DNA of 60,716 nucleotides, filler included, from Hausera hauseri (Eukaryota), in assembly GCA_046269625.1 (NCBI GenBank). It is 11 parts of 11 records of this genome, joined end to end, with 100 filler letters (N's around TTAATTAATTAA, not from the genome) between each part and the next. Parts side by side here need not be neighbours in the genome. Positions count along the whole stretch, not along the records: positions 39,565 to 44,460 come from JBJURY010400035.1; 10 more parts are not named here. One strand, 5' to 3'. Positions 7,701-54,500 of the stretch are shown one piece after another. Each line of letters opens with the position of its first letter. Positions within the stretch are counted from its first letter, which is position 1. A program made the translations under genes and the position numbers. Below the pieces are notes generated by a model, which made no database searches, was not told the DNA's origin, and was given only the letters and a program-made list of their open reading frames with translations.

Positions 7701-7770
7701 AAAAGTCGCTTTATCATGCAGTGATGATAAGCGTAAGTGGGTGAGAGGGAATAAGTGTTGGGCGTACGAA
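4713..7770 (+). pseudogene. polB: Polinton/Maverick (adintovirus-type) protein-primed DNA polymerase B, degraded
   Basis: VNVQNTNDKYCF, YADIE, DHDHFTGRYLGAACNACNL, FHNFLGYD, KGIFPYD, YGKTVENLNKR, YIGQVVLDLSK, PKGV, DDKR. Many stops and frameshifts; the motif-A region appears deleted near 6980. Confidence 0.9.
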
Positions 7771-8116
7771 TATTGCTCCCATTGTTACCAAATCGAATTT
7801 CACCATCGACACCTAGTTTGTAGCATATGTTATTTTTGTCCTCAATTCATATATTCTTACTTCCACCACCCTAGAAGAGCTGTTCTCACCATCACTAACA
7901 TACCGATCCCTCAATTACTTCCAACCAGATATTTTCGATTAGAACAACAATCATCCGCCAGAGTTGAATTTCCAATCCATCGTTTTAGCCCATCCACAAT
8001 AGTCAGACCACTGCCAGTTACATACCAAGACCTTTACCCCACATAAATGTCACGCCCCTACTACGTCAATTATCCTCAATACCACACCCACGTTATCATC
8101 CCGAAGAGATCATTAG

Positions 8117-8674: not shown

Positions 8675-8743
8675 TTGAAGTAAACATCAAACTCAAAACG
8701 TCAGATATCAACACAGAATTCAACTCCAACATGGTATCCAGCT
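8644..8743 (+). repeat. Polypurine tract, ~76-bp LTR-like unit and PBS-like sequence
   Basis: AAGGGGGAAAAA, then TGTTAG(8656)...CCAACA(8731), followed immediately by TGGTATCCAGCT. Confidence 0.5.
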
Positions 8744-15650: not shown

Positions 15651-16659
15651 NNNNNNNNNNNNNNNNNNNNNNNNNNNNNNNNNNNNNNNNNNNNTTAATT
15701 AATTAANNNNNNNNNNNNNNNNNNNNNNNNNNNNNNNNNNNNNNNNNNNNCCATTGCCGGAAGTATTTTATAACATCTTGGAATTCTTCATTATAATGGG
15801 ATATTTGTGTTCGATGCGTTAATAAATTTCGATATTCTACTTTTAGAATCTCTAATTTTCGTAAGTATTTTGAAATAATAGAGCAGTCGAATTTATTAAC
15901 TCTAAATCTGCATTTGATGTTGTCACAGATTTTTTCTGGAATTCAAATTTGAAGGAATCATGCAATTGTAGCAGAAAAATTTGTATAAGACCATCTAATG
16001 GCTTTAACGGTGTGATTGTAGTTGAAAAAATTCACTTCGGTACCGCCGGTGTTTAATTTAAAATTGCGTTGTTTTAAATAATGCAATTGTTGATTGGACA
16101 GGTTCGTGTCGGACTGAAGATTGTTTATGAGTAAGGTTTTTTGAGTTTGATGTTCAGATCATTGGATAGAACGACAGACTGATTGGGATAAATGGAACTG
16201 AGAGACGTTGACAAGAGGTAGTTCGTAGGACAGTTGAATCCCAATTGATTATCAACAGGAATCGCTGTGAGATTATCATTATGAGCCTGAATTATGACAT
16301 TGTTAAATGAGTTATTAAATGAGATAGGGGATTTGGCTAAAACGGATTTCAAACTAATTAGGTCCTGTTTGCGTTTCGACGTTCGTGGAGATCCCGGTTA
16401 AACGATGTTGGAGTCCTTCGTAGCGGAAATGTACAGTGATGGACCACAACTGTTTTGCAGAGGATCGTGGTTTGATACGTACACATTCTGTAATTAGGAT
16501 GCTATCAACACGTAATGAGGCTCATTTGAATTTGTCAGAGTGCTGTCGTCATTTCTTTTGGTCTGTTTAGGGAGTGGTCGAGGTTCACAGGTTTTGATTT
16601 CACAGTCTTTTAACGTGAAATTTTTGAGTATGATAGGAATTGTAAAATTTAGAGGAAAA

Positions 16660-19700: not shown

Positions 19701-19860
19701 AAGTTATAGTGCATATCACCAACTTAAAGCCCGCCTTCTTTGTCGACGACGATGTGGTGCCAATCGCGGCCGGTGCCCTTCGGCCCATTTTGGTTGGGCA
19801 CGGCCGGGCGTCTGCTTCGCTGCGTCGGATCAATAGTCGGACCCCATTTCCCGCCTTAAG
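16757..19860 (+). mobile_element. pol: Degraded Ty3/Gypsy pol (protease remnant-RT-RNase H-integrase) plus 3' LTR
   Basis: [68 protein letters not shown] starts TGTGGTG at 19753. Confidence 0.93.
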
Positions 19861-21789
19861 AATTTAATACTACTGCAAGTCCGTCATTCAGAATGAGTAT
19901 TCATAAATAAACCCCTTTGAAAGTGACAGAAGTCCAATAGGTTGTGCAATTTAACTTTGTCTCATGCAAGCAGGTGGTCTGGTCTCATTTTCAGACAGAC
20001 TTCAATATCAACAGATGATTCGTGGAATTGTACGGAGGACTTTTGTTACGCTTTGTATGTCATATCTAGTCGGATGTTTAGCCACCACTGATCGGAATCT
20101 TTACATTTTTTGTACGGTACACACGAACGCATCCGATAAACCACATAATAATTTCCCCGATGCACAGCACTGACTTATCAACAGATGCTGAGTTCCAATC
20201 CGATAACATCAATCGATCCATTCTTTTAAAATACGATTACTGAAGCAAAAAAATGCCGTTATCGTTTCTACCACATCAAACAATCTCTCCCCCACTCAGT
20301 TAGTTCATCTCCAAGCCATATCAATGTCACAGCCGATTGGTATCATCCATNNNNNNNNNNNNNNNNNNNNNNNNNNNNNNNNNNNNNNNNNNNNTTAATT
20401 AATTAANNNNNNNNNNNNNNNNNNNNNNNNNNNNNNNNNNNNNNNNNNNNCACTCAACCTCATAAAATAAATCATTTTCTGATTTGATATTTTTCAGACT
20501 TATTTGTATTAGCGTTTTTCGCGAATTCTTACGAACACTTGATTAACATCACCATTTCATGACGTACTTTCCTCATTTTCCTTTTCAATTCGCGAAGCTT
20601 GTTTTTCTTCTTTCTTTACCCAATTTTTATCTATCTTCTTAAACTTCCTCGTTTCTTTCTTCTCAGTCTTTTTATTCTCCGCCCAGGATTTTTTGAACCA
20701 TGGCCATTTGATATAATTTTAATTGGCACTCTGCCCAAGGCTCAACCACATTCTTATTAAGCGGCATTTCATCAATTTCATCGCAACTCAGAGAAGCACT
20801 TTCATAACCTTTTTCGACATAATATCTGAGTTGAGTGTTTCTTGAGAAGATTTTCGCCTTTTCAACTTTAAACCAACGGAGATAAGAAGTACCGAAAACA
20901 AGGAGAAGGTTATGAAAATCTCTGAAGCCAATCATAAGCCGTGGTTTACACTCCCGATCACAAGTGGGCGCGTAAACCACGCTCTGCTACCATATGGAAA
21001 ATTTACATAGCTTTTATATAGAAAAATTGTTTCAACATTACACATATCGTCCTTAAAATTAAAATCTTTATCCATCAAAATGTTATCCCTATTAAAACAC
21101 GAGCTCGTATTCATCAGTTTTTCAGAGGGCAAATACTTTTCAATTCAATTCAGAAATTTTTTTACCCTAAGTTAATTCCCCTTTTACCCTCAATTTATTT
21201 AAATTTGAAAACAGCTTATTTTAACGAACATATACTATCATATTGAGGAGATGCCTCCCTTTAATCTTACTTTCCAACCCAGTCCCTTTAATCCCAACAG
21301 ACATACAAGCAATTCCTTCCATAATGAAACCCAAGTCGACATTCGCGGTACCAAGACGGTAATAATAACAAACGATATTATTAGAATCATTTCTAACCAA
21401 AATTATGGAAACGCTGTTTGATCCCCTTTCGATGTCAATATTTTTACAGCCATGATGACAATATTGCCAACATTTTGCGTAAAATCCATTAACCCAAAAT
21501 TCTGATTGTTTCAAAATATGCAATATATACCGACAATTATATATAGATTTTTGCAATAACCGACTAGTAATGTTAACTTTAATATTGTACAAGAGACTGA
21601 AATTTGACCCGGGTAAATTTTCTTGTTCGATGGAATTTTTACAACTGTTTGTAAGACACGAGTAAGTTGTAATTGATTTTTGTTGGTATATTTCAGCCGA
21701 TCGTAACATAGAACGAGGAAATTTCGATGAGAATTCACCTGGGGTAAGGTAAAAATGACCATTTGAATACGTCACCTCGACGTAGACAG

Positions 21790-24700
21790 GCCGTAAAAGC
21801 CGAATTTCTTGAACTATAACGCTTCGGCATTGTACGACGTTCCAAATCTCTTTGGTCGTCACCTTTACATGTTGTACAAAAAAGGACGGAACTTTTAGAC
21901 CAAGCAGTGATTACCGACAATTAAACAACTTGACTATTATGGATGCCTACCCCTTACCACTCATTAAGGATATCTTGCATCGCATTAATTCAACTACCAT
22001 TTATTCGACTATCGATTTAGCCAAAGAATACCACCAAATACCGGTGGCACCCGAAGAGAGACAAAAAACTGCTGTCACTACTTCTTTTGGCCTCTACTAG
22101 TACCCGTTTATGCCATTCGGTTTGCAAAATGCCGCATAGACTTTTCAGCGACATATCGACTCAATTCTCTCAGATTTTCCCTTTGCTCACCCTTACATTG
22201 ATGATATTCTGATCGTTTACTCTTCGGCCAAACAACACGAGAAACACCTTCGCGCGATATTCCAACGCCTTCACCACCATAATCTCCAAATAAATTTAGA
22301 TAAATACCATTTTTTCAAAAAGCGCATCAACCTTTTGGGTCACGTTATTTCACCAGGCAGCCACTCGCTTCAACAAGACCAAGTTGAAAGACTTAAAAAT
22401 ATATAATTGCCATGTACGACCACCGAAATGCGCATCTTCCTCTGTACACTAAACTTTGTACATAAATATGTACCCTATTGCTTTAAATTGAGAGCACTAT
22501 TCGCACACTTAAGCGGCGACAAAAAACATCAGCAAATCCAGTGGACACCTAAACTGGTTGACAAGTTTGATACGCTACGCAAAGGAATTAAAATCGTCGA
22601 CATTCTTGCTTTACCCAAGCCTGATGCTGAACTCATCCTTAATACAGACGCTTCAACCACTGCAGTAGGTGCTGTACTCCACCAAATCCACAAAGGAGAA
22701 AATCAACCGCTAGAATTTTCCTTTCGTAAGCTAACATTCAATAAAACCAGATATTCCACGTTTGATCGAGAATTATTGGTCATCGTCCTTGCTTTGGAAG
22801 GTTTTTTCCACCTACTTGTCGCTCGCCATTTTAACATACAGACCGATCACAAACCTTTACTTAACATCATGACTATGAAACATCTTTCCACACGCCAAGA
22901 ACGACAGATATCATACTTGTCGGCATTTAACTTAGACATAAAACATATTAATGGGGTTAATAATTTGGTTGACGACTTTTTATCTAGGTCGATTAGTTCG
23001 ATTAATTTTTCACCGATTTTTACGCAAGCTCAACTTCAACAGAACCAGTTACCTCAGGACATGTTTAATTCTTTCAAGACTTGCACAATTGTTGACGGCG
23101 TGGCTTTAGACACTTCCAAACCAGGTCATTCCATAATAAACTTTGCACCACCTTTGCAAAGGCAAGCATTTAATAGTGTACATCCGCTACACCATCCCGG
23201 CACTAAAACCACTTTTCGATTACTCCATCGGCAAGTAATTTGGCTATCAATGTGTTCTTATGTGCAGGCATGGGTTAAGGAATGTGTGGCTTGCCAAAAA
23301 TACAAAGCAACTAAGCATTTAAAGCCACCACTATTCCACTTCCTCTGCACATCGCGTTTCGAATCCGTGCATCTCGACATCGTTGGCCCTCTTTCTCCAG
23401 ATAAGGGTCATCAATTCACTCTCACCATGATGGACCGTTCCTTGCGATGACCAAAAGCCATCCCTCTGCGGAGTACAAATACCGACACCGTAGCTGACGT
23501 TTTCATTCTTACATGGATTAGTAGGTTTGGATCACCTCGTTTCATCATCACGGACCAGGGTCCACAATTTGAATCCAACCTGTTCAAATTTCTCATTAAC
23601 AGATTGTGGATCCACCACATAAATACTACGCCTTATCACCCCAATCGAATGACTTTTTAGAACGTTTCCACCAAACATCGAAAACGTCACTACGAATCCT
23701 TGAAGAGTTCAACACTAGTTGGACGAATCTTCTTCCCTTCGTTCTGATCGACTGGCGGAACACTCCGTCCACTTTTACAGGATGCTCACCTACCGAAGCC
23801 TTATTCGGAGCTCTTGTACGATCATTATTCGAACTAACTTCTCTAGACGACACTCTTACAGGTAAAATAATACGGGCGGCTCAAAATCGCTTCGTTACGG
23901 TCAGCAAAGATTCGTTCTGCTGGTTACTTCATAAAGACAAAACATATTTACCCAAAGATTTGTATTCGGCAAAATTCGTATGGCCAAAAAATCAAATATC
24001 GTGCGGTTTTCAGCCGCGGTATCTGGGGTCCTATAAATTGACACATCTGTATTCATATAAAGCTATTATTTCTAAATACTGTAAAGAACTTACAATGCAT
24101 ATCACCAACTTAAAACCCGCCTTCTTTGTCGACGACATTTCACCAATCGACACGTCAATCTCTTTTTTCACTCCTACACTTCCTGCTATTCATATACCTA
24201 TTGCTACACCTGTTTTACCTCCTCCTTCTTCTTCTAGTTCTGCTTCATCATTTTCTACATCTTCTACTTCTATTTTTATCTCTCTTCTTATCTCTACCAC
24301 TACCTCTGTTTCATTTTCTACTTCTACTCTTTCGCCTAATACAATTCCAACTTCTACTCCAATTTTCGTCTCTTCTCCTTCATCCGCCACTATACCTTTT
24401 GTCAGTCCTTCGACTTCTAACACTCTCTTTAGTACCTTTAACCATCCTTCTCCACGAATCTCTTCTTTCTTTACCTTCTCCTTCTCCATTCTGACTCGCC
24501 TTTGCACGACATATAACTCACAACAAAATCTGAAAATTTTTTTCCCAAACTTCGAACTCTGCAAGAAAACACACTGCATACAGACAAACCATGCAGTCAC
24601 ATTTAGCATATATAGCAGGGAAAATTCAGTAGAAGGCACTCAACATCTTGTTCATACTAAGACCAGCTGACACAGACATTTTCCCTTTGGCGATTTTTTC

Positions 24701-24870
24701 TTTCCGTCTATTTTACCCTTTATAGTTTCAACCTTGCTACGGGGGATGATGTGGTGCCAACCGTGGCTGGTGCCCTTTGGTCCATTTAGTTGGGCACGGC
24801 CGGGCGTCCGTTGTCGCCGCCGCAGATCCATAGTCGGGACCGATCTTCCGACTTTTTGCCTTAAAAGTTT
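21790..24870 (+). mobile_element. pol: Degraded Ty3/Gypsy RT-RNase H-integrase, pyrimidine-rich 3' region, PPT and 3' LTR
   Basis: Closely similar to 17500-19750; YIDD, TDAS, TDHKPL; GGGGGATGA|TGTGGTG at 24741-24756. Confidence 0.93.
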
Positions 24871-36259: not shown

Positions 36260-39200
36260 TGTGGGAATTCGATTACCCGGAATTTGGGACCCGCCGCGAC
36301 AAGGCTGACGTCCCGGCCGCTCACCCTGCACCATTGGGTCAGACGGCGCCGTTCGTTGCCGCCCCACAACACGCCCCGGACACACCACCTCTTTATCTCC
36401 TTTTCTTTTTTATCAACAACAGGCATATTAGCACACATACAGCAACACATGTAAACACTGCTGCCATCCATAAAATCATCTCCACTTCTTTTCATTCCTG
36501 TAACTTTTATGTCACACAATGGATCTTTAGTACCCCTCGCTGGAACTCTAAAATCTTCCTCAACCCACATCTGTCTTCACATTAACTTCCGTATCCGTGG
36601 TGGCATGGATTCATCACCCACAATTGATACCACGGACAAACTCACCAAACCACAAATCCCCATCATTCACTTATCCAAACAAATTGCTTCAAACACCCCC
36701 ACACAACACACACTCCTCACTCATTCACCCGGCACCAAATACTTTCTCGACAGCCAAAACTCTACTCAAACTTGGCTAAAACTGCACCAATTTTGGCTCC
36801 AATCATAAAACGTCGTCGACTCTTTATCCAAAGCCAACATCCTCTTTTTTCATTTATCAGCTTCCACCAAACTAAAATTACCAATATCATCGATATCCTT
36901 CAGCAAACCGATCCATATGCTCAACTTTACAAGGCTGTTCTCAAGCTTATTCAGCCGTCAATCGATTCAATTATTCAAAGGTTCGTTAACGACAACGCCA
37001 TGGGCCTTTAGAAGCCTTCTGAATTCCTACGCACATCCTTGTCTCACCTCAACACCCTCAGCGTAACATCTGAGCATAGTCCAGAACTTATTCGTCGCTA
37101 TTTCTTAAATGCATTTCCCCTTCAAATAAGAGCTTTGCTTACCGTAGTCGAGGACTCCACTGCTCTGGACAAGCTAGCCGAACTGGCAGATAAAGCATAC
37201 GAAGTACTACACTCACACAGCACCAACTATCTCTGCAGCATTAACAACAGACCAACAACAACAAAATGCAATAATGCAGCAACAATTTGCGCAATTACAC
37301 ACAGAAACTGAAATGTTGCAAAAAACCATTAACATAAACGAAAAATTAAGCGAACTAACGCTGCCTCGACGGGGTTTTTCTATGGCTGCTTCCCGTAATG
37401 TATTTAATCAACGTCAAAAACGGTGGCCTTCGCCCGCGCGGTCATTAATTTGCTATTATCATAGCAAATTTGGTAACAGTGCTCAGAAATGCTGCATCGC
37501 TTGTAACTTTAATTCCCCGATTTTAATACAAGCGACATCGTTTGCATCTACCATTCAAAATTTGGCACAAAAGCACAAAAATGCCTACCTGGCTGCAACA
37601 ACAACACAATAAATCCAATATTACTAAATTCACACAGCACAGTAGACCAAACTCACCAACTACGAAAAACTGATTTCGCCGCTAGGACACACGGCAAGTC
37701 CTAACATGGGCAACAACCAGCAAAAAGACAGCCGACACATCTCTTGCTGTATTCACGTTGGAAGCACCATTCGTCACTCCAACAAAGCAAAACATTAACT
37801 TTCTTATACACACTGGTGCAGCAATCTCTCTACTGTCACCAACACAACACATCCAAAACAATTTCACCTCAAAAAAAAACAACTGTTCACTGCGTCCGGT
37901 GAACCTTTACAAACTTTTGGTGTTACTAAATAAACGTTCACACTTCCAAATTTCCCAAACACATTCACTGGGAAATTTACAGTAGCCAATGTACGCACAC
38001 CTATATTGGGTTCAGACTTTCTGTCCCACTAAAATTTACTTGTCGATTGCAAGCGATGTTCCTTAAAATGAGGAAATAATCTCAATCAAATTAGCAGCAT
38101 TTAGGTGACCACCCAGACGATCGCGTCCAGTACGTCAATACTGAAGCAAACGACTTCCGATTTAAATTATTTTTACAATCATACATTATACAGAAATTTT
38201 TACTACGGTGACAAATGCGATATTGCCAACTGCGTGGCACCTATTACTAATAGCACAGCTTCAAACACCATCTTCAACACAAACATCCTGCACCAAGTAC
38301 CACCCAGTCACAACACCTCGTCCATAACTCATACCTCAGCTGCATCCTGTCATGATGCATCGACACCATCGGATAATTTGTCATCGTTGCCTTCTGATCT
38401 ACAGCAATACATTTCGTCTTCCTACACGCGTCTGTTGCAAAAGGACAAATCATTCGTACCACCTCAATCCACCTTTCATCATATAGTAACAGCACAAAGA
38501 CCAATACGGCAAAAGGTCCGCACGCTTTCGCCTCGTCACATACAGGCAGTGGAGGCTGAGTTTCTCGAACTGGAACGATCAGGAATAATCAGAAGATCCA
38601 AATCCCCATGGTCTTCGCCACTGCATGTGGTTCCAAAAACAGATGGCACCTTTCGCCCATGCGGTAATTACCGCCAACTCAATAGCATAACCACAATGGA
38701 TGCCTAGCCTCTACCATTAATCAACGATATCCTTCGCAGGCTCCACGGTTCGACCATATTTTCCTGCATTGATTTACACAAAGCATACCACAAAATTCCG
38801 CTGGCCCCAGCAGACATTGCGAAAACGGATGTCATTACACTTTTCGGCCTTTTTGAATACCTATTTATGCCTTTTGAACTCCGTAGCGCTTCCCAGACTT
38901 CCAAAGGCATATCGATACAGTTCTCTCATGTTTAGACTTCGACTATCCCTATATTGATGATATCTTAATTGCATCATCTTCCTCCAAACAACACTCTGAA
39001 CACTTACGCTTAATCTTCCAGAGCTTACACCAAAACAACTTGCAAATCAAGTTCTCTAAATGCTGCTTTTTCAACATAAGGTCAATTTCCTAGGACATGT
39101 TATTAGCTCCTCCAGACATTCACCTCAGCCAAACCGCATCACACAGCTCAAAAACAGACAGATACCACTTACATCAACAGAGATGCGTTCTTTCCTCGGA

Positions 39201-39464
39201 ACCTTGCACTTTATTCATAAGTAAGTTCCACACTGCTCCACTCTAACCGCTCAATTTGCATCACTAAGCTCTGGCAAGAAGAAACAACCTATTCAATGAA
39301 CTGCCAAGCTATTCAACGCTTTCGATCACCTCAAAGACAATTTAAAAACTGGAAATCCTGGCCTATCCCGACTCCCATGAAAAACTCTTCTTAACCACCG
39401 ACGCATCCACAACAGCTGCAGGTGCTGTCCTCCATCAAGTTAAAAATGGATCCCATGAGCCATT
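36260..39464 (+). mobile_element. Degraded Ty3/Gypsy element: 5' LTR (36260-36368), gag, protease, RT, start of RNase H
   Basis: TGTGGG...CCCACA LTR; KPSEFLR, CYYHSKFG; FLIHTGAAISL; SPWSSPLHVVPK; YIDD; TDAS. Confidence 0.92.
37664..37703 (+). promoter_or_regulatory. -1 frameshift site (G AAA AAC plus pseudoknot)
   Basis: Same layout as 242-283: 7-nt spacer, GCCG/CGGC and TAGGAC/GTCCTA stems. Confidence 0.7.
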
Positions 39465-39564: not shown

Positions 39565-40725
39565 TCTTGGTAGTTGGTATGTATCCGTCTCCGTTATTTC
39601 ATTTAAGGCTCTATAGTCTATGCAAAATCTCATACTTCCATCTTTCTTTTTAATCATTACTACTGGCGCTGTCCATGGAGAACAACTTGGTCAAATTATC
39701 TTATTTTCCCGCATCTCCTTTATTATTTTGCGAGTTTCCTGTTTCTTATCATATGCCAGTCGATACGGTCTCTTCTTAATCGGCTTGTCCTGTCCGTCCT
39801 TCAACTTAGTGACATGCTGTATTACTTTCATGGTACCAAGGTCATAGTCGGTTTGTGAAAATCGACTGGCATTCTTTTTTAATAATTTCACTAACATTTC
39901 CTTTTCTTCCTTACTTAGAATTTCACATTTCTGCAGTCTCTCTTTTCAATTAATATTTGTGGTTTTATTTCTTTTGTCTTCGTCCGGTTTTTTTCCCAGT
40001 TTTTCCATCTTCATCTTTTCTATTTTATCCACATCTAATATTACTGAGCAAGTTTCTTCTTTGGTTATTTCTTCAGTGATCGTTGTTTTTTTCATTCTAG
40101 TATCCTTTCGTAATCGTTTTCCCTTATTTGTCGTATTACAAATGCATAAGTGAACTTTTCCATCTCTAACTTTATTTACGTGAAAGGCGATTAGGACTTC
40201 ATACTTTTCCGTAACTTGTGGAAATGGTTCAAAATAAATAATTTCTTTAGCGTTCGACTTTCTGCTTCTCCAGGGACCATTATCTCAGATCGTGGTGGGA
40301 TCGTAATGTCTTTCGTTAATGAAACCATTCATTCGTTACGATCTTCACCGAACGTCTTAAGTTGACATGTTCTCATATATATACGCGTTTTCCAATTGAT
40401 TTAATATATCACATCCTATTAAAATTTCGTTAGTCAGATTATCGGCTATTCTTATAGTATGTTTCAAAATTTGTACTCCAATCTTGATTTTGGCGTCCAG
40501 GATCATTTTGATTTCTTCTTCTGTGCCAAATGCTCCTACGTTGACTAGTGTAGTAGTTGGCCTTCGCAACTTCCTTTTTAATTCCTTTGGCAATTGGCTT
40601 CTTTCCATTATCGTCGTTGTAGATCCAGTACATAGCAAGGCCATCATGGGGTATCCATTTACTTCTATTTCTATTTCTGGCCTTATAGGTGGTTGTCGTT
40701 CATTTTTATCATACACCGTGTACAT
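39565..40725 (-). pseudogene. pol: Gypsy aspartic protease and N-terminal RT
   Basis: IEVNGYPMMALLCTGSTTTIM...ILIGCDIL; PIKKRPYRL...[27 protein letters not shown]. Confidence 0.9.
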
Positions 40726-41034
40726 GAATTCACGTTTATAAGTTGTTAAATTTTCTTCAAAACTTTTTCATCTGCTGTACCTGTCGTATAGGGCATAGTT
40801 CTGTATGTACTACGTATCGGGGAGCTGATGGATTTATTAACGGTTGTTCATTATACATTTGTCCGTGATATTTATCTGCAGGATACAGACGAGGTAGGTC
40901 TGTTATTAATTTCTGTCTACACTTAGGCTTCCATGTTTTAAGTATTAGTTGTTTAACACTAGGTACTCGTTTCTTTGCTTTTATTTGACTATATTCGGCA
41001 TCATCATTATCAGGTATACTATATTGGGATTCTT

Positions 41035-42917
41035 TCATGTCTTTTCTTTCAGTATCTTTCTCTTCCATCGTGCATCATGGTTTGCTAAGAGGCAACTTGC
41101 TACTGCCGGTACTACCTTTTTTAGAATCTTCCATGAGCATCCTACTGCGGCATGTATCCCATATGCCTTACCTAATGCCGTAAATACTGTTCGAAGGGCG
41201 CTAATTATAAAATATATCGCTAGAAAACCTGAAGCGGTTGACCAAAATATAAAAACTTGCCCCACATCTTTTCCATTACATTTTTCGTCACCTTCTTTAA
41301 ATAGTCCTTACCCATAAGATTTTCCCACTGTAATGATCCTTCGCCATTCCACATTACTGTCCTTGTCAATTCCGTTATGACCCTCTGTCTCTGCTGGGGA
41401 AACAACAACATACGTCGATAGTCTTCTAGATTTTGCTGTGTGTAAATTCCTCCTTGCGATATTCCAGTCAACGGTTCGAATTTCTGATTCCGTTGTAAAT
41501 TAATTAAACTCAATGTCTCTGGTTTAGATACTCGTTCTCTTTTGGGCATCCTAATCCACTTATCGTTATCAATCTCGAACATGGGCGACATATTAAAGGT
41601 ACAATTATATAGAGGAGTATGCTTCATGTTATTGTCTAATAATATTCTAGTTACTGGCATTAAATATTTTGGTTCCGTATGGTACATCACAGGTAATTCC
41701 ATCATACATACTTCTGTTGGCCTAATTGATACTTCCACATTCTTACGTTCTATTGTTATTAAAACTTCGCCCATTACTCTGTCGATAATTCCGTCACCGA
41801 AGGGCATTACAGGCGCTACCATATCCGGGTTCGTTATTACCAGCGCCATTTTATTACGCATTATTTCGTAATTCAGCTTGCACTCGTTCATTATTATTTC
41901 ACGATATAGACCTCTAATCTCTTTCCTTACGTAATTAATTAAAAAATCAATCTTATTGTCGAAATATTGCGTCAGTTTTATATCTTATCTATTTTGGTTT
42001 TCGCCCCGAGTATCTCTTTTCTTGATAAGAAAATACCCTTAGTTAGTTTTCGATGCTTCGTTACATTTAGTTGCTACTCCCGTAATCTTGAATCGCATCA
42101 TATCTTCCGGGTTTTCTGAATATACAATCGTAGCCACTTCTGTCATCTTCACTTCCTTTGTTCCTTCTTTATACGTGGCTGTTTCTTTTTCCGCTGTTTT
42201 TCCTACCGTTTTATTAAATTTTCCTTCCTTCAGTAACGTTAATTGACATTTACTTGCTGTGACTTCCCATGTCATTTTCGATTCTCCGGTATCACATTCG
42301 CCATTATCATATTCACATTCGCTCATAGTCGTCATTATTTTTGTCTGTGAATCAAATAATACTTCATATTCCTTCAACTGGATCTGGTAATCTTCGATGG
42401 CTACCGTCCTAGGCGCAATGGTACCTCCTACGTCGTAATCTACCCCTTTGCACGTTCCTTCCATCGTCTTATCTATTCTTCCTGCCTTGAAAATTCTGGT
42501 ATATTTTATCCGATTCCGAACTGCTGGTACATGTGCGTTTTGTATAGTTATAATACCAATCTTGAAAGCTTCTTGGCACTCTGATCGTGATATAATAATT
42601 GGTTCGAAAGGTGTGGTGGGTTCGATTATGGCTGAGTTTCCTGAATAGTAGGCACAATAAAACAAGAAAAATGATCTCTTTACGTAACATCCCCTGACTT
42701 TTGCTTTTATGAATTCCGATTCTTGATATACCCAGTATGTAAGACCACTTGTCGTGGTTAACTGTTCTGGGTCAGCTTCTGGGCATTTCTCCAAATCCAT
42801 TAGAGAGTACTTTTGACCTTCACTAGGTTTAGAGCAGTCATAAGCTATTATACCCACAGCTTTTGGCATCAATAATGACGTTATTAGGAGAATTTGAATA
42901 ATCTCCATCATTGACAT
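41035..42917 (-). pseudogene. env: Chuvirus-like envelope glycoprotein
   Basis: Hydrophobic signal then IIAYDC...SL...C...Q....C..R...YC; YFDNKIDF...LYREIIMNECKL; G....MGEV...VEVSIRPTEVC..ELPV....YL.P.TRIL; GIYT; WGKFLYFG followed by a TM segment. The motif order matches recalled Jingchuvirales glycoproteins. Confidence 0.8.
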
Positions 42918-44355
42918 ACCTGTTATGCCTGCTCTAGAGATGTTTGGTTGTGTCGCCATTGGCGTATCTATTAGTCTTTCTCGTTCTCCTGGCCTTATTA
43001 CGTTGGTCATCAGGCTGGTTAACCATCCACCTCTACATTGAGCCCAATTGCCTAACGTATCTTTCAAAATTTTTACGGCTGTTCTTATATTCCGCTCAAT
43101 TTCTTCTAGGTTTTGCGTTTGGTGATTGATTACTATTATTTTATATAGAAGGTATGATATCGCCGTTCGAGCTTTTTCGCGTGTAATTCCGGTTGCGAAC
43201 ATTTTTTCTAAAATATCCATCTCATGCAGTTCATTTATCCGTTCTTCCTCTAAATTTTCGTAGAATTGCCTACTTATTCGTAGCATATTATTATGTAACG
43301 TTGTGAATAGTTCATCTGGTATTATTGCCTGCATGTCAAATGAGGCAAATGACGTATGTAGTCTAGCCAATAATGTTCTTAATAATGGATCTATGTCCAC
43401 CGATTCAGGAGTACCATCTGTTCCTGCTAATAATAATCGTCTCACTATTTCTTCATTTCTATCTTTTCTATTACGAATATCACTTATTTTTGTTCCTTTC
43501 GGCCTACCTCTTCTCTTAGCTTCTGTTTGAACCGTAACATCCTGCGTATCACCTATAGGAATTTCTTCTACTCCGGGTGGTTCTAGTTCTCTTATAATAT
43601 TTTCTACTGTAGCCTGGGCTCTTGCCTCTGGATGTATTTCGGTTATCGTTATCGGATTGTAGTTCTCACTTCTACATCCAATTCTCAATAATTTGTCGTA
43701 GTTATATAACGTTCTTCCATAGTAATTTAGTCCATATGGGCTTCCCTGATAGAAAGGTTCCAACTCCTCAATCCTTTCTCTTAGGCTTTGTATATCGTCT
43801 ACTTCCTTCATCCTAATAACCCTCATATCTTGGTTTCCTTCCCTTACTGTTATCCGTAAAACTTCGTTCCTTCCTTTCTCATCTTCGGCAACCTTGGCCA
43901 ATACCGTTCTTGCTACTTCTCTTACAGGATTCGTATCCTGGGCTAATAACACTAATTGAAGTAAAATTTCATTCACCCTTTCTGACGTTACTTTATTAGT
44001 AAGTATCTTTAATATCGTGGTTGTTGTTTTATCTACATCGATTATATTATTGGGATCAACAGTTATTACTGCCTGAATAATATCTTCTTCTTCGTCTAAG
44101 TCTACGCCTAGATTTCTTATTACTTTAATCCAATATAGTATCGTCAAATATTGGCGTAGCTTGGGTTTCTTCCGGACTGAATGAGGGTGAGGGTGTGCTG
44201 AGATTACTCTTCTTTCTTCCTCTTTTCTTTTCTTTTAATACCTCTTCTCTCTCGGTTGACGTTTCTCTTGATTCAACCTCTACATCAACTATTTTCTTAT
44301 TGCCTTTCTTTCTTCCTTTACGGGATCCTTGTTTCTCTGGTTGATTTTCTATCAT
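42918..44355 (-). CDS. Unknown charged, probably helical domain with AT-hook/NLS-like motifs, in frame with env
   Basis: The first ~410 aa of ORF 42039..44147 run directly into the env signal peptide; KRRGRPKG; KKRGRKK in the overlapping upstream frame. Confidence 0.7.
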
Positions 44356-44560
44356 ATAAATACTACTTTCTTTCAGTCTTTGCTGCTGTCTTTTATACTC
44401 CTTTAATTCTATTTCTAATTGCTTCTTTACATGGTGAGGTAATGTATCGTTTATATAGTTNNNNNNNNNNNNNNNNNNNNNNNNNNNNNNNNNNNNNNNN
44501 NNNNTTAATTAATTAANNNNNNNNNNNNNNNNNNNNNNNNNNNNNNNNNNNNNNNNNNNN

Positions 44561-45799: not shown

Positions 45800-47950
45800 T
45801 GTGTCCGTGACCGCGTCACCACATCACCCCAGTGGCAGAATAGAAACGATGTGAAGGAAAAAACAATGATGAAGATAAGATGGATGAAAATGATGAGTCG
45901 CAAAATGAACAATGTTCGGTGCCTATTCGGTTTTAGTATGGGTCAGGCGTTGTGTAACATCAAAGAACTTTTCTATGCAGTACGTATTGAATGTCACTGT
46001 GCGTGGCTTACTCGATGGATTTGTGCTGGGTTGTTGAGTGATATTTTGTGATGAAAATTATAGTGAAGATAAGTCAAGCAAAAAGGCGATGCAATTGGAG
46101 GTGATGAAAAGTCATTTAGAAAATCTGTAGGAGTGCGAGATGAGTTTGAGTTGGAGGTAGAATTGGCATTTGAAATGTCGTCAATGAAGAAAGCGGGCTT
46201 TAAGGTCGAAATATAGATTTTGTAAGGTTTATCTTGGCGTAAGATGGTTGCTGGGTGAGATGAGAGATTCAGCAGTTTGTATGGACCAACATATTGAGGT
46301 CTAAAACAAGAAGGCGATTGATACTTCAGTCGCACAAACTCGGAGGCAAATAAACCCTTTGGAATATAGGATTTGTTGTTGTTAAATAGACGACAGAATG
46401 AATCTAAGCTGACATCGACAAAGTGAGATTGTGAATCACGAATGTTTTCGTCTGCGGGGTTGTCGTTGGGATCCGAAAGCTCAAATAGTGCCAGAATTGG
46501 AGTTCCAAAGAGTGCTTCGGCTGGAGCACAAGCGGTAGTGGTAGAAGGTGTGTTGCAATACCCTAGTAGAACAAATGGTAGAATGGACGTCCAATTACGA
46601 TGAATGTCAGCCAAGATTTTTGAAGAAATTTTCATTGTGCGATGGAGTCTTTCAAGGAGGCCATTTGCTTGAGAATGATATAGTGTAGTATGGAAATGGG
46701 ATATTCCCAAACCCTTGACAATTGATTTGAAAAGTTTCGTCTCAAATTGTGGACCTTGATCTATTATTATGTGACGTGTAGAACCAAAGCGACTGATCCA
46801 GATTTTAATAAAAGGCGTATGCAACTGAACCAGTGTTCGTTGAACGAAGAGGAACGGCTTCAGGCCAGCGAGAAGCACGTTTCATCATGGTAAGTATATG
46901 TTAATATCCGTTGTCTGAAGGCCAAGGATTAACTAGACCAAGATGAACCGTAGGGAAACGTGATTGACAGGGAAATGGTACAGTGGCGGTTTGAGGTGTT
47001 TGTTGATTTTGTATTTCTGACAGGCTACGCATTCTTTAACCCAACCCTGTACATCTCTACGCATTAATGGCCATACTACATGACGTTCAAGTAGGCGAAA
47101 GGTTGCTTTGGAACCTGGATGATGGAGTGAATGCGTGTTAACAAAAGCTGGCTTTTGTAAAGATGGTGCTAAAATGATCTTTTTATTACCGATATTCGAC
47201 GTATCATAAGCAATGCCATCGGTGATCTCGAAAGATTTGAAGAAACTAAGGAGGCCTGCAGACGGTAGATTTGCCTTTAACACGTCGGATGGGAAAATGG
47301 GATCAACTGTGATGGAGCCAACCGACCTCGATAGAAAATCTGCTACTAGATTATCTGTGCCTCAGATGTATTCCAAAACAAAGCTGAACGCAGACAGGTA
47401 TGATATATGTCTCCACTGCCTCGGTGATGGCTGTTTTAACGACATGATGTGTAGGAGAGGCTTTTAATCAGTTTGAGTGACAAATAAACGAGACAGAAGT
47501 ATATTTTTAAAATGTTTTACTGCCTGAACTATGGAGAGTAACTCACGGTCAAATGTTGAATAACGGCTTTCGGGTTGTTTAAACTTCCTAAAGTAAAATT
47601 TTAATGGTTCATCAATCCCGTTGGAAATTTGGTGTAATATCGCACCAGTTGCTGTGGTCGAGGCATTGGTAGTAAGTATAAGATCTTCGTTGAGCTTTGG
47701 ATAGGCCAGTATTTCGACCGATTTAGGCCATCGCGTAAGTGATCAAACTTAGTGACTAAATCAGGAGTCCAGTGAATCAACAGCCTTTTTTCCCAATATG
47801 ACAAATGTGCAAAAGATGCCGTAAGCTCAGAACAATGAGGTACGTATTTGTGGATGAAGTGGAGTGTGCCTAAGAAGCTTTTCATGTGCGTGGTAGTCGT
47901 TGGTAGAGTAATGTTCTTCAATTGTTGTAGTCGATCCGGTTATGGAGAGT
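45800..47950 (-). mobile_element. pol: Degraded Ty3/Gypsy RNase H-integrase with PPT and LTR start
   Basis: SFLGTLHFIHKYVP, HSLHHPG, ECVACQ, IDQGPQFE, ERLHR; GGGGTGA|TGTGGTG at 45830-45817. Confidence 0.9.
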
Positions 47951-48580
47951 GGCCGTGAGAAGTGCTGACGTGACTGTAATTTCGAAACGTTGTAAATAAA
48001 CTCGTACATAAAAGGTTTCCATCAAAGCCATAAGTAGAATGATCCAACATAAACAAAATTTAAAATTTCTATTTCTAAACTTCTTACAAATCAATTTTTA
48101 TATTCTACATCTACATATTCATACCTATATACACAAATATATACATGTTTCCTTGTAAACTTTCATTCATACAAACATATACATTCAATTGCAAACATCA
48201 ACTCATACACACAAAATTACATATTCCCATGCAAACATCCACTTGTACACAAGCATACACATGTTCCCATACAAACATCCTTCTATATAAACAAGCATAT
48301 ATATATACTGTTATAGGGGGCAAACATTATTATCTCTTTTCTTTCTTCTACTTTGAGGAGAAAGCGTACAATTCTGTGCATTACTGCCTCTAAAGAGGCA
48401 GTACTATTGAGTACTTGAGTACTATTGGACAACAAATCAAGAAAATAATAGGTTGAATAGAGGCACATGCATAGGTCCTATCGGCTCATCTGCGTCCAAG
48501 CATCCCATCAGCATGAAGCTCAACAGTCTAAGCAAACTTTTAATGATTAAATCCATACTAATGATTCCACAAAATGGTTT

Positions 48581-50977
48581 TTAACCATTTAATTTATTTG
48601 TAGAAACAGTTGAAACAACTACATCATTACCCGATGTTAATTCACTTGTTATTGGATTATCTGACATTATTTTCAATTCTGGTGTAGCACTAACATTTAT
48701 GTTCTCAAATTCGGTTTTGACGTTTGATACAGATTGAATTGTTTCAATATTAGGCTTCATACTAACTCGCTGAATTTCTTCGGGTAACTGAGATTCTACA
48801 GTAGGTTTGTTAACATTTATTTGAGAACCGTTAACAGGTGAACAAACGTTAACACCCGGAATATTTAATAAACCGGAGTGATTAGTAATAATACTCACAG
48901 AATTATTGATTTCAGAAGGTTCAAGTATTGTTGCTTGATAACTAACTGTCGGAGATTTCTGCACACTAACAGATAATGAAATCGAAGATGATACACTTGA
49001 AGTCGAGCTAGTAACTGGAAGATTTTTCACATTTGATACATTTGAACACCGTTTATTTCTCTTCGAAGTACCCTTTTCGATTTTCACTTTATTTTGATTT
49101 TCAGCATTTTGTTCTTGCATTACTCGTTCAATGACACTCTTAACGTAGGACGTAAGATCTTCTTTCTCTACGGTATTTGTATTATTGGCATTTACTTGTT
49201 TCAATGGATAAAGTTTAACGTTTGAATTGTCAAGCACAGTTCCTTCAACAATAATATTGCTAGAATTATTATTTGTTGTTTCACTGTTGGAATTATCAGA
49301 ACATTTATCCAAAACTTGATTTGCAATATTCATGCTGCTTAACTGAGACTCTGAATTAGTAATATTTGGTGAAATAATATTGCTTATAGAACTGGACGAA
49401 GTGATTGATTCTTCTAATGCAGTTTCAATACTAAGGAAAAGATTATTATTTGTTTCATCTTCGCTTTTATGATCAACATTTATTTCGGATTCGCAAAAAA
49501 TTATAACTTTCGGTGTCGAAACTCGAACTTCTTCATGACTGATATTTATAAAGCTATCTATTATATTCTCTTTTATGTCGTTATGTTTTACATTTTCAAC
49601 ATTTGTGGATTCAGTAACTGTATCTACATCAGAGTTCGCATCACATTTCCAGATTAATGGTGACCTTATTTCACTTTCTTCTTTTAGCATTATACTAGCA
49701 ATAGCAATATCTTGCTCTTCTTTATCTAATTCGGTTTTTTCATCATCCGCAAATTTTGAACTTTCTAATTCACCCGTATTATTTACTATTTCAAATTTAC
49801 AATCCTCAATTTCTTTACTTACTAATTCATTTGAATCAATTAAGCTTTCTATCAATTCTTTTCCAGTGTTGTTTTCTAAATTATCGTTTTCATTTTTAAT
49901 TATTGCTGATGATTCTTCTTCGTCCAATTTAACAAAAGATATATTATTAATATTTTTGGAAATAATTTCAAAGCTTCCGACTTTTTCTTTAACTATATTT
50001 CCACTTTCACAACTGCTTTGATAACTTAAACCTGATTTCCAATCATCATCCGACAATTTCATACTTTCTAAATCAACTTCAGCATATTCCACAGAATAAG
50101 ATTTAATAACCAAAAATCTAGCCAAAGCCAGCTTTGATAAATGAAACAGCTGAGGATTAATTGTCTGCATAGTTTCTATTAAACGTTTTTTGATTTGGGG
50201 GTCTGAGATAGATGAAATGATTTCACGAAATCTTTTTACATCGAAAGTAGTAGAAGTCTGTGTCACAATATTGTCAGAACAATAACAATCGTTAATGCTT
50301 AAGCTTTTTAATGTCTGATGAAAGTTTTCATCGAGTAAATGAGCATCATAAGGATTCCAAGCGAGACCTGGTGCAGGTGCTTCGACCGATAAGTTTCCTG
50401 AATTATTCTGCTTGTTGTACTGAGGATTTTTCCTTATAATCTGATTGTTTTGTGGAGAATTTGACATTTTGGATTTGGAACTGTTTACTGGTAGTGGATT
50501 GAAATTATTGTCGAGGTTATTAGCAACAGCCGAAGAAAAGTTACTATTGCTGTTCATAGGATTGTCGGAGTTTTTTGTCATCATAAACGCATTCTGATGA
50601 GGATCAATATTCGGAGAAAGACCCAGGCCTGGTAAACTGTAATAATTTGATAATGAACAATAATTTGAATGAGTTCCAGCATTAGGAAACTGATATAAAA
50701 GTGGCATAAATTCTAAGGGACTGTAGATACACTGATTTGCCATACTATTTGTATAAGCGTCATAACCAATATTTGGTGGCTGTGAATAATAACTTGTTTC
50801 TCCATCGGATATAATTCTATTATTATAATGAACCTGTTCTGAATCATTTCTTGAAGTTTTTTCATCGTTTAAATTTTGATATTGCTGTTTAGGAACGAAA
50901 GGAATAGAGAAACAATCATCCCACTTCTGACACCAATTTGTGGGTAGTAATAATCCATCGTATAAAATAAATCCAAA
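48581..50977 (-). CDS. Large host exon, unknown N/S/E-rich protein (~800 codons)
   Basis: 720-aa ORF whose frame stays open upstream (FGFILYDGLLLPTNWCQKW...) to a pyrimidine-rich acceptor TTTTGCTTTGTTAG ending at 50978. Confidence 0.7.
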   Translation of the reverse strand, partial: FGFILYDGLLLPTNWCQKWDDCFSIPFVPKQQYQNLNDEKTSRNDSEQVHYNNRIISDGETSYYSQPPNIGYDAYTNSMANQCIYSPLEFMPLLYQFPNAGTHSNYCSLSNYYSLPGLGLSPNIDPHQNAFMMTKNSDNPMNSNSNFSSAVANNLDNNFNPLPVNSSKSKMSNSPQNNQIIRKNPQYNKQNNSGNLSVEAPAPGLAWNPYDAHLLDENFHQTLKSLSINDCYCSDNIVTQTSTTFDVKRFREIISSISDPQIKKRLIETMQTINPQLFHLSKLALARFLVIKSYSVEYAEVDLESMKLSDDDWKSGLSYQSSCESGNIVKEKVGSFEIISKNINNISFVKLDEEESSAIIKNENDNLENNTGKELIESLIDSNELVSKEIEDCKFEIVNNTGELESSKFADDEKTELDKEEQDIAIASIMLKEESEIRSPLIWKCDANSDVDTVTESTNVENVKHNDIKENIIDSFINISHEEVRVSTPKVIIFCESEINVDHKSEDETNNNLFLSIETALEESITSSSSISNIISPNITNSESQLSSMNIANQVLDKCSDNSNSETTNNNSSNIIVEGTVLDNSNVKLYPLKQVNANNTNTVEKEDLTSYVKSVIERVMQEQNAENQNKVKIEKGTSKRNKRCSNVSNVKNLPVTSSTSSVSSSISLSVSVQKSPTVSYQATILEPSEINNSVSIITNHSGLLNIPGVNVCSPVNGSQINVNKPTVESQLPEEIQRVSMKPNIETIQSVSNVKTEFENINVSATPELKIMSDNPITSELTSGNDVVVSTVSTNKLNG

Positions 50978-51542: not shown

Positions 51543-54500
51543 TTACAATAATACCACATGTCCATGAGGTAGTGTCTGAATTCCGTCTTCAAGAATGTTC
51601 TTCTTATCATCGAACCAATTGAAATTTTTCTTCCACAACGCAACTGTGGCAATCTGACGTTCTCGGGACCGGATTCTTTTCATCTCGCTGACTATGTGAC
51701 TTTGTTCCCGCAACACTCTCTCAAAATCTCCAAAACCCATGTCTTTAGCTAATGTGGCACTTTGAACGCCCTTGGCCTGCTTCTTCACCTGATTACTTAC
51801 ATCGATGGCGTACATTTTTAATCTCAGCACCACGAAACGGGTGATAATCTTTTCATTCACCTTGTCTTTAAACATCTCAAGGACCTTCTTGTTGGTAACT
51901 GAATAATTTGGATGAGCCTTCGGATAGTCTAAGGTATCCATATATTGCGCCAATTTTGCATTCTTTTAAAATACATAATCTGTGCAAATCTGGTATATGA
52001 AACCGTCTGTGTCCATGTACATTAGCTGGAGCTCCATGAATGTGGAGACCATGATGTTGTAATAAAAGTCATACATCAAAGTCTTAGATAGATCTAATAT
52101 GGACATGCCCATATATAGGCTTGTTGAACTCAAGTGATGTCTTGAGCACATTAATGCTCAACAGGTTCTCTGTGTAGATTGTCCTGCTGTGGAAGTTGGA
52201 CTTAGCGATGAGTTTCTTTGCGCTTTTCCAGTCACATACTAGCTCAATGTTTATCCGGTTTCGGATGTTCTCCATAGTTTTGCCAAAGACCGAGTTGTTG
52301 TAAAGTTTGAATTGGTCCTTTGAAACTCTTTCTTGGCATTGGCACTCAATTGAGTATTGAGGTCTATGTATAGATTCAGCCATTTGGACTGGCTGGACTG
52401 CAGGGTCCGATGAATCCTGATGACTCGGAGTCCATTATGGATGGCCTGTTGGAGATTGATGTAGTGGACTACATACCTCTCCGTGTTTTCGAGATGGCAG
52501 TGCAGCTTATTATGCTTAACATTTGGTGGCCTCTTGCTCTCCGGCAGAAAAGGCAGCTGCTCATACATTGTGTGGATGCTATGAGGGTATACCACATCCA
52601 CCTCCAGTATATATCCCGTATCTCCAGTAGGATCTAGGTCCAATATTTGGATATCTTCAGGATTCTCGACCCATTTAAAGTTATCATAGGGCAATGGGTT
52701 GCTCATTGCCCATTCATACAAGTTGTTGACTTCCAGATATGAAATATATGAGGATTCCTTTGACGGATCATAATTTTCCATGTATTTGTTGTTGGCTTTA
52801 CTGTAGCTGTGAATGGCGTGGCATATTCCACCTCTAATGCCTCTCTCAACTATGAGGACCATATTGTAATCTTTCAATATTTGGAGCCCTATACCGGTAT
52901 AGCGCAGAATCGCCACCCAGCTCATTCCTGGAGCTGTAAGGAAATTGGCTGGATCTTGTGGCTCGTAAGGGTTACATCCCGGAAACGTTCGAAGACATCT
53001 GTAAGCAGCAGCACATCTTTGAGGCGATAGATATCACTGTATTCTCCCATGGCCCTGCACTGGAAGGTTTGCCATACTCTTTGGGCATGCTCATAATCAG
53101 CATCGCTAATATGACTGAGTAACAACTGACTATAAAAGTCCTTATTGTCCGGTAATGTTTCTTCATCCAGTGTTGCCCATGACGTTATATAGTCATAGGG
53201 GAAGATGCCTTTCCTCTTGACGAGGCCAAATGCAGCGGGGAAGAACCGCTTCGTCTCCTTAAGTTCTTCTGCAGGGAGATTCTTCACTAAGCTATCCTGT
53301 GACAAGCTCATGAAGCGGAAGCTGTCTATGAATCGAAATTGAATGTGGCCCACATGCTTAGCAAAGGTGATATATTTTTCCTCACAGTTTGGAATGACAT
53401 CAATGTTTTTATCAATATTACCAAGTTCCCGAACAATGAAATAGAAATCATAACCACTGAGATTGTGGAACACTACATGCACATGTGTACATGTTTTGCA
53501 ACGTAGATTGCAGTTGTTGCATGCTGCACCTCGATATTTGCCTGTAAAATGGCAATGATCCCTGACTTTATAATTATCCTTGGTGAAGGACTTGTTGCAC
53601 AAGTAGCATGTTGTTACCTTGCGCCATTCATCTTCTTGCTGATTCGACATGCTCACTGTATCCTTATGCTGCTGAAGCGTGTTTTTAAGCATATGAGCTA
53701 TGTCTTCTAATCTCTTCATAAAATGTGCTGCTGCTTCTGGCCCTCTGAATAGAAATGGTTTACTGTCCAGTCCTTTGGCATACATACAATATGATGAGAG
53801 TTCATGATATTTGTATGTTGTTGTGCTGCTATGTTGGGGATTAGGGCTGCAGATGTGAACTGGGCTGAGGATGGCCTTATAATAGCAATAGACGACAATC
53901 GGCACCTTCCGCATCTTCTCAAACTCCTTGAATTCCAGGTAAACCTCCTTGGTGAATTCTGCTCGGATGCAATAATATGTATTACAGTAGGTCTTGTGCT
54001 CCATCAACTTTTCTGCGGCTGTCTACCCATTAAAATTGGTAAAGAATCTCTTGCATATTTCCAGCCTTGATTTATGCTTGGATATTTGGGATCGTACAAG
54101 GCGCTCAAAATTCTTGATCCAGATGAAATGCACCGTTTCTCCATCATCTATCAGGAGTAAATCCTTATAATCCTCCAATTCCTCCTTGTATACATGCAAT
54201 TGGTAAAATTTGTCCTCCTTCAATCCGAAGATGTTGCTTGAGATGTTGTTCACGCTTTCAAATTTCACGACTTCTTCTAGGCTCGGCGGAAATGAAATAC
54301 AGCTGAAGTTGTATGTGTGCTGCACTTTGTCATATATCCAAACGTGGGAAGCATTATGTTGATCCTGGACTAGTTTTGATAAAATGGCATATATGAAACA
54401 CATGTTGTCATTATTATGGACATTAACACATGCCTTTTTCTTAACTATCCATTAAGGAAGCGGTATGTAGGACTTGCTTCTTGTGGGAGAATACTTGTGC

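Follow-up and report, generated by a model that had tools for sequence, protein, structure and literature searches.

Results

The window, the whole 60,716-nucleotide stretch of Hausera hauseri DNA that was analysed, contains a piece of a Ty3/Gypsy-type element that fills one entire contig (39565–44460, minus strand), with N spacers at either end. Both ends of the contig fall inside an open reading frame, at the 5′ and 3′ sides, and the gag, RNase H (RH), integrase (IN) and LTRs of the element lie off the contig. The copy is broken and mutationally dead, with stops, frameshifts and a protease lacking the catalytic Asp. All of its features described below are on the minus strand.

The envelope gene (env) opens with an internal signal-like hydrophobic segment (42855–42917), recognised by hydropathy and homologues, which lies upstream of a conserved YDC motif. 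It starts at 42917–42926, has a KD value of 1.74 over 19 residues and occupies the same position in all 16 homologues compared. The ectodomain that follows (41262–42854) is chuvirus-like and of the gB-type class III fusogen kind, and is interrupted in frame by stop codons at 42041 and 41987. With X placed at both stops, the stretch 42917–41223 matched PF24664 (Monjiviricetes_fusion) with an E value of 2e-73, and 13 of the 14 cysteines conserved among 128 homologues were kept. Foldseek analysis of the predicted model (mean pLDDT 83.9) retrieved herpesvirus gB from the PDB (E 6e-16) and chuvirus glycoproteins from BFVD (E 2.5e-38), whereas a sequence search of the PDB gave no matches; no conserved furin site was found in env. 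The model thus predicts a class III fusogen with a gB-like fold, and the chuvirus-like glycoprotein called by the first-pass annotation stands.

The transmembrane (TM) region and cytoplasmic tail or linker (40690–41261) were located by tblastn of relatives. The TM segment begins at about 41259 in a frame other than that of the ectodomain, so that env is frameshifted as well as interrupted by stops; with P0003, P0006, P0011 and P0154 as queries, the match ran on in the other frame at 41301–41041. The spacing between env and protease is about 209 codons, and spacings of 129–260 were found in 10 of the 15 measurable homologues. As judged from sequence, the stretch between env and protease is probably a decayed coding linker and not intergenic. 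The series of signal, ectodomain, TM segment and tail originally placed at 42917–41035 thus lies entirely on one strand of one contig, but its signal is internal and its TM segment is in another frame.

A retroviral-type aspartic protease (PR; 40390–40683, RVP E 1.1e-9) with a non-Asp residue at the catalytic position was identified downstream. Protease and reverse transcriptase (RT) had been reported within about 300 nt of env; both are present, but the protease lies about 350 nt past the stop at 41035, which the first pass had taken for the end of env, and only the N-terminal part of the RT is on the contig. Between them is a conserved, frameshifted spacer domain (40095–40331), for which a profile of four homologues scored 11.7 bits, whereas none of 600 shuffled frames exceeded 4.2. 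The spacer of the related element L001 had no matches in the PDB, and that of a relative matched only unnamed eukaryotic clusters in the Atlas, neither search naming a dUTPase. A linker and the RT fragment (39565–39924), with one stop, are truncated at the contig end. In a PDB search this piece of only 120 residues matched Ty3 RT best (E 1.2e-17; next family, 8.8e-8). It was 40–53% identical to the RTs of all seven env polyproteins tested and in these comparisons outscored the other RTs in the window. These matches assign the RT to the Ty3/Gypsy (Metaviridae) type, in keeping with the initial identification of a Gypsy element.

Ahead of env, a 439-codon stretch (the X region) continues in the env frame. 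Translation of the 5′ end of the contig yields a charged low-complexity linker (44112–44460), and gag is predicted to lie further upstream, off the contig. The next segment (43635–44111), defined by alignment to P0004 (37% identity over 407 aa) and by profile, is helical and then probably ubiquitin-like (about 43870–43640). The aligned part of P0004 gave a weak ubiquitin match (E 0.031), and a three-row profile including two L001 repeats had the UHRF1 ubiquitin-like domain (Ubl) as its top match (E 0.0039); when close relatives were left out, the profile reached 1.9 bits (shuffle maximum, 3.1), and a direct PDB search with the stretch found no ubiquitin. A ubiquitin-like domain ahead of the Bcl-2-like domain described below, in frame with env, is probable, although the call is weak. 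In P0004 the homologous X region begins at residue 376, downstream of a zinc knuckle at 197–212. A basic motif seen on translation (43490–43515) and common to P0004 is presumably AT-hook-like; motifs of similar type precede env in P0006, P0008, P0009 and P0154.

Immediately before env, and in its frame, lies a helical domain (43015–43400) in which segments resembling BH1 and BH2 can be made out. It matched Pfam Bcl-2 with an E value of 0.012, which does not reach Pfam's cut-off, and a single-sequence PDB search gave BOK as the best match (E 0.14), whereas with a five-row profile the best 60 of 106 PDB matches were all Bcl-xL/Bcl-2 (top E 0.0023). The region is helical in the predicted model (pLDDT 50–79), and its BH1 motif is degenerate. 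The profile matches, more than the weak single-sequence ones, classify this domain as Bcl-2-like. A BH2-like motif also precedes env in P0004, P0007 and P0015, with a variant in P0005; no Bcl-2-like motif was seen before env in P0009, P0012, P0017 and P0020, and the cassette is thus not universal. The X region had no usable match in the Atlas, and its single-sequence model (pLDDT 36.8) was not used. Of the proposed gag-X-env-pol order, X could be resolved into a Bcl-2-like and a probable ubiquitin-like domain in frame with env, but no gag domain was recognised on the contig.

Among 22 relatives scanned, 12 carried env followed by protease within one protein (five also with RT, four also with integrase); P0003, P0154 and L001 do likewise, so that 15 other proteins share the junction in one ORF and it is not peculiar to this copy. 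The contig itself carries PR and then RT; RH and IN follow in P0006, P0011, P0019, P0020, P0154 and L001, and env 5′ of PR-RT-RH-IN, as anticipated by the first-pass annotation, is accordingly found in several independent sequences. Relatives carry Gypsy-type RT_RNaseH and Integrase_H2C2 domains. In P0004 a single ORF runs from a gag knuckle through the same X region into env, and P0154 is a 4844-aa env polyprotein with ankyrin repeats. L001 is a single 3703-codon ORF with the order gag-CCHC-Ubl-env-PR-PR-RT-RH-IN; no LTR pair was found within 15.4 kb and no ankyrin repeats were seen in it, and MATH and BIR domains were seen in neither L001 nor P0154.

A second, divergent and decayed element of the same kind was detected by tblastn and translation on another contig (55700–60681, minus strand). 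It comprises a gag-like start, a zinc knuckle, a long spacer and the first half of an env of the same type (PF24664, E 3e-12), which is 30% identical to the first env with no blastn match. In this second family the order gag, then env, can be seen directly.

Read-run contigs on the element stretch at ≥85% numbered 17,853 in X1 (which may be the window's own source), 2,327 in X2 and 248 in X3, covering 30/30, 30/30 and 28/30 bins, respectively. The parent is a multi-copy Ty3/Gypsy retrotransposon family.

Discussion

The arrangement found here closely resembles that of Burro/GYPSM1, the giant Gypsy elements known from dugesiid planarians (Jurka 2007; Grohme 2018, via PMC6431247). Arkhipova and Yushenova (2019, PMC6431247) describe planarian Burro elements as Ubl-BCL2-env (mononegavirus-like)-PR-RT in one ORF. 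Burro, as described there, and the contig copy share the order Ubi/SUMO-like (a probable domain in the contig copy), BCL2-like, env, PR, spacer domain and RT, with the spacer sitting where Burro has its dUTPase-like domain; in both, env lies in frame between gag and pol, and copies are many. In the contig copy the X region and env are in one frame, and the continuity of env with PR is broken here but intact in relatives. The Burro env is reported to match mononegavirus fusion glycoproteins, and ours is likewise related to the mononegavirus/chuvirus type. Burro has MATH, BIR and ankyrin domains in about 30 kb; the contig copy is a decayed piece of 4.9 kb. Kinship with Burro1–4, judged by architecture and not by alignment, is putative.

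A recent survey (Chary and Hayashi 2026, PMC13524379) lists Gypsy elements of GAG-ENV-POL order from nematodes, bryozoans and flatworms; it also counts 114 Gypsy elements whose glycoprotein is chuvirus-like. Its HSV/gB-type errantiviruses are like the contig copy in combining a Ty3/Gypsy pol with a class III gB-like env upstream of it, flanked by signal or TM segments and with no conserved furin site, although they are intact and our copy is broken. The main text of that survey makes no mention of Burro, Bcl or ubiquitin. Anakin elements (Dezordi et al. 2020, PMC7642597) carry a glycoprotein of the same family (PF24664); their pol is BEL/Pao, whereas the RT here is Ty3-like, which places the contig element outside BEL/Pao, and its env, unlike that of Anakin, is placed before PR-RT within a polyprotein and belongs to a separate clade.

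We consider it very probable that the contig holds a dead copy of a multi-copy Ty3/Gypsy family with a Burro-type layout; the ancestor of this copy, when active, likely produced a single Gag-to-integrase polyprotein. An alternative with a fair claim, although we hold it to be the less probable, is an element of the same kind from a GAG-ENV-POL lineage apart from Burro proper, for instance of a non-planarian host, with Ubl, Bcl-2 and env shared with Burro by old descent or exchange. That GAG-ENV-POL elements are reported as not monophyletic in pol (PMC13524379), that the nearest envs are just 33–47% identical and that MATH and BIR were not seen in either L001 or P0154 would fit such a lineage, whereas the domain order agrees point by point with the published Burro description. 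This alternative overlaps the Burro-type reading, the family label being the sole difference.

That a Gypsy lineage took up a chuvirus glycoprotein anew and independently, as first supposed, is very improbable. Besides the PF24664 match, chuvirus glycoproteins are the best viral structural matches: Jingchuvirales glycoproteins share the cysteine pattern and reach a TM-score of up to 0.59 in BFVD, but at only 16–21% identity, and they are stand-alone viral genes without a retroelement context. The best 17 of 867 env matches were long polyproteins or fragments, and the first stand-alone protein appeared at rank 18 with 27% identity; median identity was 34.6% to 17 polyprotein-clade rows and 25.7% to 53 others. 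(Among 4,664 candidates of near length, a word-index protein search retrieved none, a limit of its sensitivity given these 867 relatives, and a search of viral contigs found no relative.) In a quick-search tree without bootstraps, built from 70 of 126 full-coverage matches (of 153) and with a window row of odd composition, env fell within an 18-row group with a long, fully supported stem (SH-aLRT 100, length 0.98), in which protease follows env in 13 of the 17 other rows. By sequence, env belongs to an old, well-separated clade of polyprotein-embedded envs and not to the stand-alone glycoproteins, and this nesting argues against a new capture. A solo chuvirus-derived EVE does not fit the same placement or the shared frame of env and its upstream domains. 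The env-pol order, initially thought unusual, is not so for this env type and is already in print for Burro/GYPSM1 (PMC6431247) and GAG-ENV-POL errantiviruses (PMC13524379). Prior cataloguing of the architecture had been named in the first pass as grounds for refutation, and the proposal of a new retrovirus-like lineage falls with it.

Chance juxtaposition of a chuvirus-derived EVE and an unrelated Gypsy pol, or misassembly, is extremely improbable: the assembly is fragmented, this copy is disrupted on the way from env to protease and, among the run contigs listed, no single one bridges the env TM to the protease or spans the whole junction, but the junction recurs in the 15 other proteins, its spacing agrees with homologues, the depth of its bins in X1 and X2 resembles that of other low bins, and, of the RTs tested, those of env polyproteins are the nearest to the downstream RT.

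Under the Burro-type reading, the ancestral polyprotein would have run Gag, ubiquitin-like, Bcl-2-like, gB-type Env, protease, RT, RNase H and integrase. The internal signal would direct the ectodomain of env into the lumen of the ER, the TM segment would bring the tail and Pol back into the cytosol, and the parts could be freed by signal peptidase and the element's own protease. The Bcl-2-like domain would be kept at the cytosolic side of the membrane, anchored by the env signal about 40 residues past the BH2-like motif, an arrangement resembling that of tail-anchored cellular Bcl-2 proteins. Most likely it would dampen cell death, only a guess given that the Bcl-2 matches fall short of the Pfam cut-off and that the BH1 motif has degenerated. 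Env, as a predicted class III fusogen, may mediate particle entry into neighbouring or germ/stem cells; it would have been inherited within the old clade of such elements and not newly taken from a chuvirus.

The contig copy extends a described group by one further, broken member. It is useful as a connecting case: Arkhipova and Yushenova (2019) on Burro and Chary and Hayashi (2026) on GAG-ENV-POL elements appear to cover overlapping elements (PMC6431247, PMC13524379). L001, P0004, P0005, P0007 and P0015 place the Ubl/Bcl-2/env module across several divergent families, and if the host is neither a dugesiid nor a land planarian, the range of Burro-type elements would be wider. Quite tentatively, and with more doubt than confidence, Burro-type elements might be an old, wider enveloped Gypsy lineage beyond planarians, in which Bcl-2 is hard-wired to a class III fusogen and the env signal doubles as its membrane anchor; the env clade would then be deeply sister to the chuvirus glycoproteins and not have branched off from within them, and at least two such families, one highly amplified, would be present in this genome. 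Burro1 reportedly protects the stem cells of planarians via a BIR/RING region (cited in PMC13465017), and a retroelement-borne Bcl-2 would thus be a second way of achieving this that is open to testing.

Organization of the element

The window element occupies one entire 4,896-base contig (39565-44460) and is encoded on the minus strand. A 731-codon open frame (44234-42042, minus) runs continuously from an upstream region through the hydrophobic segment at 42917 into the glycoprotein (env), whose ectodomain (42917-41223, minus; X placed at two in-frame stops) matched PF24664 Monjiviricetes_fusion with an E-value of 2e-73 and retains 13 of the 14 cysteines conserved across 128 homologues. The transmembrane (TM) region starts at about 41260 (minus), in a frame differing from that of the ectodomain, and is followed on the same strand by a retroviral-type protease (PR; RVP, E-value 1.1e-9) with a residue other than Asp at the catalytic position, a spacer that has undergone a frameshift, and only the beginning of a reverse transcriptase (RT; best PDB match Ty3 RT, E-value 1.2e-17). 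Gag, RNase H, integrase, and LTRs are all missing from the contig, and this copy is dead.

The 130 residues before the env signal resemble Bcl-2 (Pfam E-value 0.012; BOK E-value 0.14). With a five-row profile of this region, the 60 matches listed of 106 were all Bcl-xL or Bcl-2, the best (E-value 0.0023) extending from BH1 to BH2; BH1 itself is degenerate. A BH2-like motif also precedes env in the homologous proteins P0004, P0007, and P0015, with a variant form in P0005, and was absent from the other 12 homologues compared. Further upstream lies a probable ubiquitin-like domain, supported via P0004 and L001 (a metagenome locus of a related element) but not by an independent profile, which scored 1.9 bits and so stayed below the best shuffle score of 3.1. 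Relatives have a homologous PR-RT spacer (profile score 11.7 bits versus a maximum of 4.2 for shuffles), and PDB and Atlas searches with the relatives' spacers gave no dUTPase match.

A single polyprotein of this layout would cross the ER membrane twice, with the internal signal opening a lumenal ectodomain and the TM segment closing it. The Gag-side and Pol-side parts would remain cytosolic, and signal peptidase together with the protease of the element would release them. Lying about 40 residues past the BH2-like motif, the signal segment would anchor the Bcl-2-like domain, which might plausibly counteract cell death.

Env-protease junction in relatives

A phmmer search of 1.84 billion proteins returned 867 relatives, of which the top 17 are long polyproteins or fragments and rank 18 is the first stand-alone protein. 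Domain scanning of 22 of the 150 relatives listed, picked by rank and length, revealed env followed by protease within a single protein in 12, with RT as well in five of these and integrase in four; P0003, P0154, and L001 are three further cases beyond the scanned set. L001 carries gag, two CCHC knuckles, a ubiquitin-like domain, env, two proteases, RT, RNase H, and integrase in one 3703-codon ORF (97-11208), and P0004 has a knuckle, then a stretch 37% identical over 407 residues to the X region of the window element (upstream of env and in its frame), then env. The pre-TM and protease motifs lie about 209 codons apart in the window element, within the range of 129-260 codons found in the 10 homologues, out of 15, that allowed both to be located, so the apparent env-protease gap is probably a decayed coding linker. 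The first-pass annotation, which placed env 5' of protease-RT, was correct on this point: the junction recurs in relatives instead of being confined to one copy, and the observation is real and no artefact.

The L001 ORF also holds a second ubiquitin-like copy (order gag-Ubl-Ubl-env-PR-PR-RT-RH-IN) and is followed by an accessory ORF (12085-13473) with an RNase T-like exonuclease match (E-value 0.0011). Two to four protease-like domains per polyprotein are common among relatives (P0003, P0006, P0008, P0009, P0017, and P0154), and some relatives have extra hydrophobic segments beyond integrase. The database entry for P0011 (HBK71150.1), an env-pol polyprotein of the same env clade, assigns it to a Flavobacteriaceae MAG, most likely because animal DNA was binned with bacterial sequence.

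Fold and origin of env

A structure model built from a 129-row alignment had a mean pLDDT of 83.9. Foldseek returned herpesvirus gB throughout the PDB matches listed (best E-value 6e-16, TM-score 0.3-0.37), and chuvirus glycoproteins as top matches in a viral library (E-value 2.5e-38; TM-score up to 0.59, 16-21% identity). Env is therefore predicted to adopt a class III fusogen fold, and its description as chuvirus-like, already indicated by PF24664, holds.

Its reading as a new, independent capture is very unlikely. In a quick IQ-TREE analysis (71 rows, including 70 of 126 full-coverage matches), the window env fell inside an 18-row group (SH-aLRT 100, stem 0.98) of polyprotein-embedded envs and fragments, with mostly stand-alone proteins of 580-1000 aa outside; its median identity was 34.6% inside the group versus 25.7% outside. 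This pattern is at odds with recent capture from a chuvirus, and the tree gives no direction of transfer because it is unrooted and without bootstraps and most of its rows are unnamed.

Copies and other contents of the window

Contigs from three public sequencing runs (X1, X2, and X3; three coded organisms and studies, X1 possibly the window's own source) matched the element at 85% or more in 17,853, 2,327, and 248 cases, contig depth not being copy number, and covered 30/30, 30/30, and 28/30 bins along it. On this evidence, the element belongs to a multi-copy family. None of the run contigs listed spans env TM to protease. A second contig (55638-60716, minus) holds a divergent decayed element with a gag-like start, a knuckle, a 3.3-kb spacer in which no named domain was found, and an env of the same type, of which the first half is present and which is 30% identical to the first env; the two elements share no DNA similarity.

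The window consists of 11 short contigs, with N runs at 4613, 11204, 15651, 20351, 26382, 34801, 39465, 44461, 51376, and 55538, and neighbourhood across these artificial spacers carries no meaning. An open 1297-codon Gypsy pol (RT-RH-IN; 11805-15698, minus) has a charged extension of about 400 residues beyond integrase. A different Gypsy family, for which env matches were lacking, has left several decayed copies at 17460-19800, 21770-24800, 38100-39440, and 46000-48000, two of them 83-89% identical. Protein-primed DNA polymerase B is represented by decayed pieces with matches to endonuclease VII at 52251-54022 (minus) and 5874-8674 (plus), accompanied by a RING finger ORF at 8117-8671; this assemblage is Polinton/Maverick-like. 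A 798-codon low-complexity ORF (48581-50977, minus) without a significant Pfam match is probably a host exon.

Relationship to known elements

The gag-X-env-pol order and the pairing of Gypsy with a chuvirus-like env had both been proposed as new, and both are already in print (PMC6431247, PMC13524379). The giant planarian Gypsy elements Burro/GYPSM1 encode gag, MATH, Ubi2/SUMO-like, BCL2, env, PR, dUTPase-like, and RT in one ORF, with an env matching mononegavirus fusion glycoproteins, and are presented as the first case of an env set in frame between gag and pol (Arkhipova and Yushenova 2019, PMC6431247). Gypsy elements that have the GAG-ENV-POL order and a gB-type env are described from Nematoda (citing Sacco 2022), Bryozoa, and Platyhelminthes, with nine flatworm rows, one with 215 copies, alongside 114 arthropod Gypsy elements with a chuvirus-like glycoprotein (Chary and Hayashi 2026, PMC13524379); chuvirus glycoprotein in BEL/Pao elements is also documented (Dezordi 2020, PMC7642597).

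The window element shares with Burro the order Bcl-2-like, env, PR, spacer, RT, and solely on this architecture it is a candidate member of Burro proper. Among the Burro-type GAG-ENV-POL Gypsy elements it is a new, though decayed, member and is in that sense already explained. If the Bcl-2/env module marked a wide lineage outside planarians, the interest of the element would rise.
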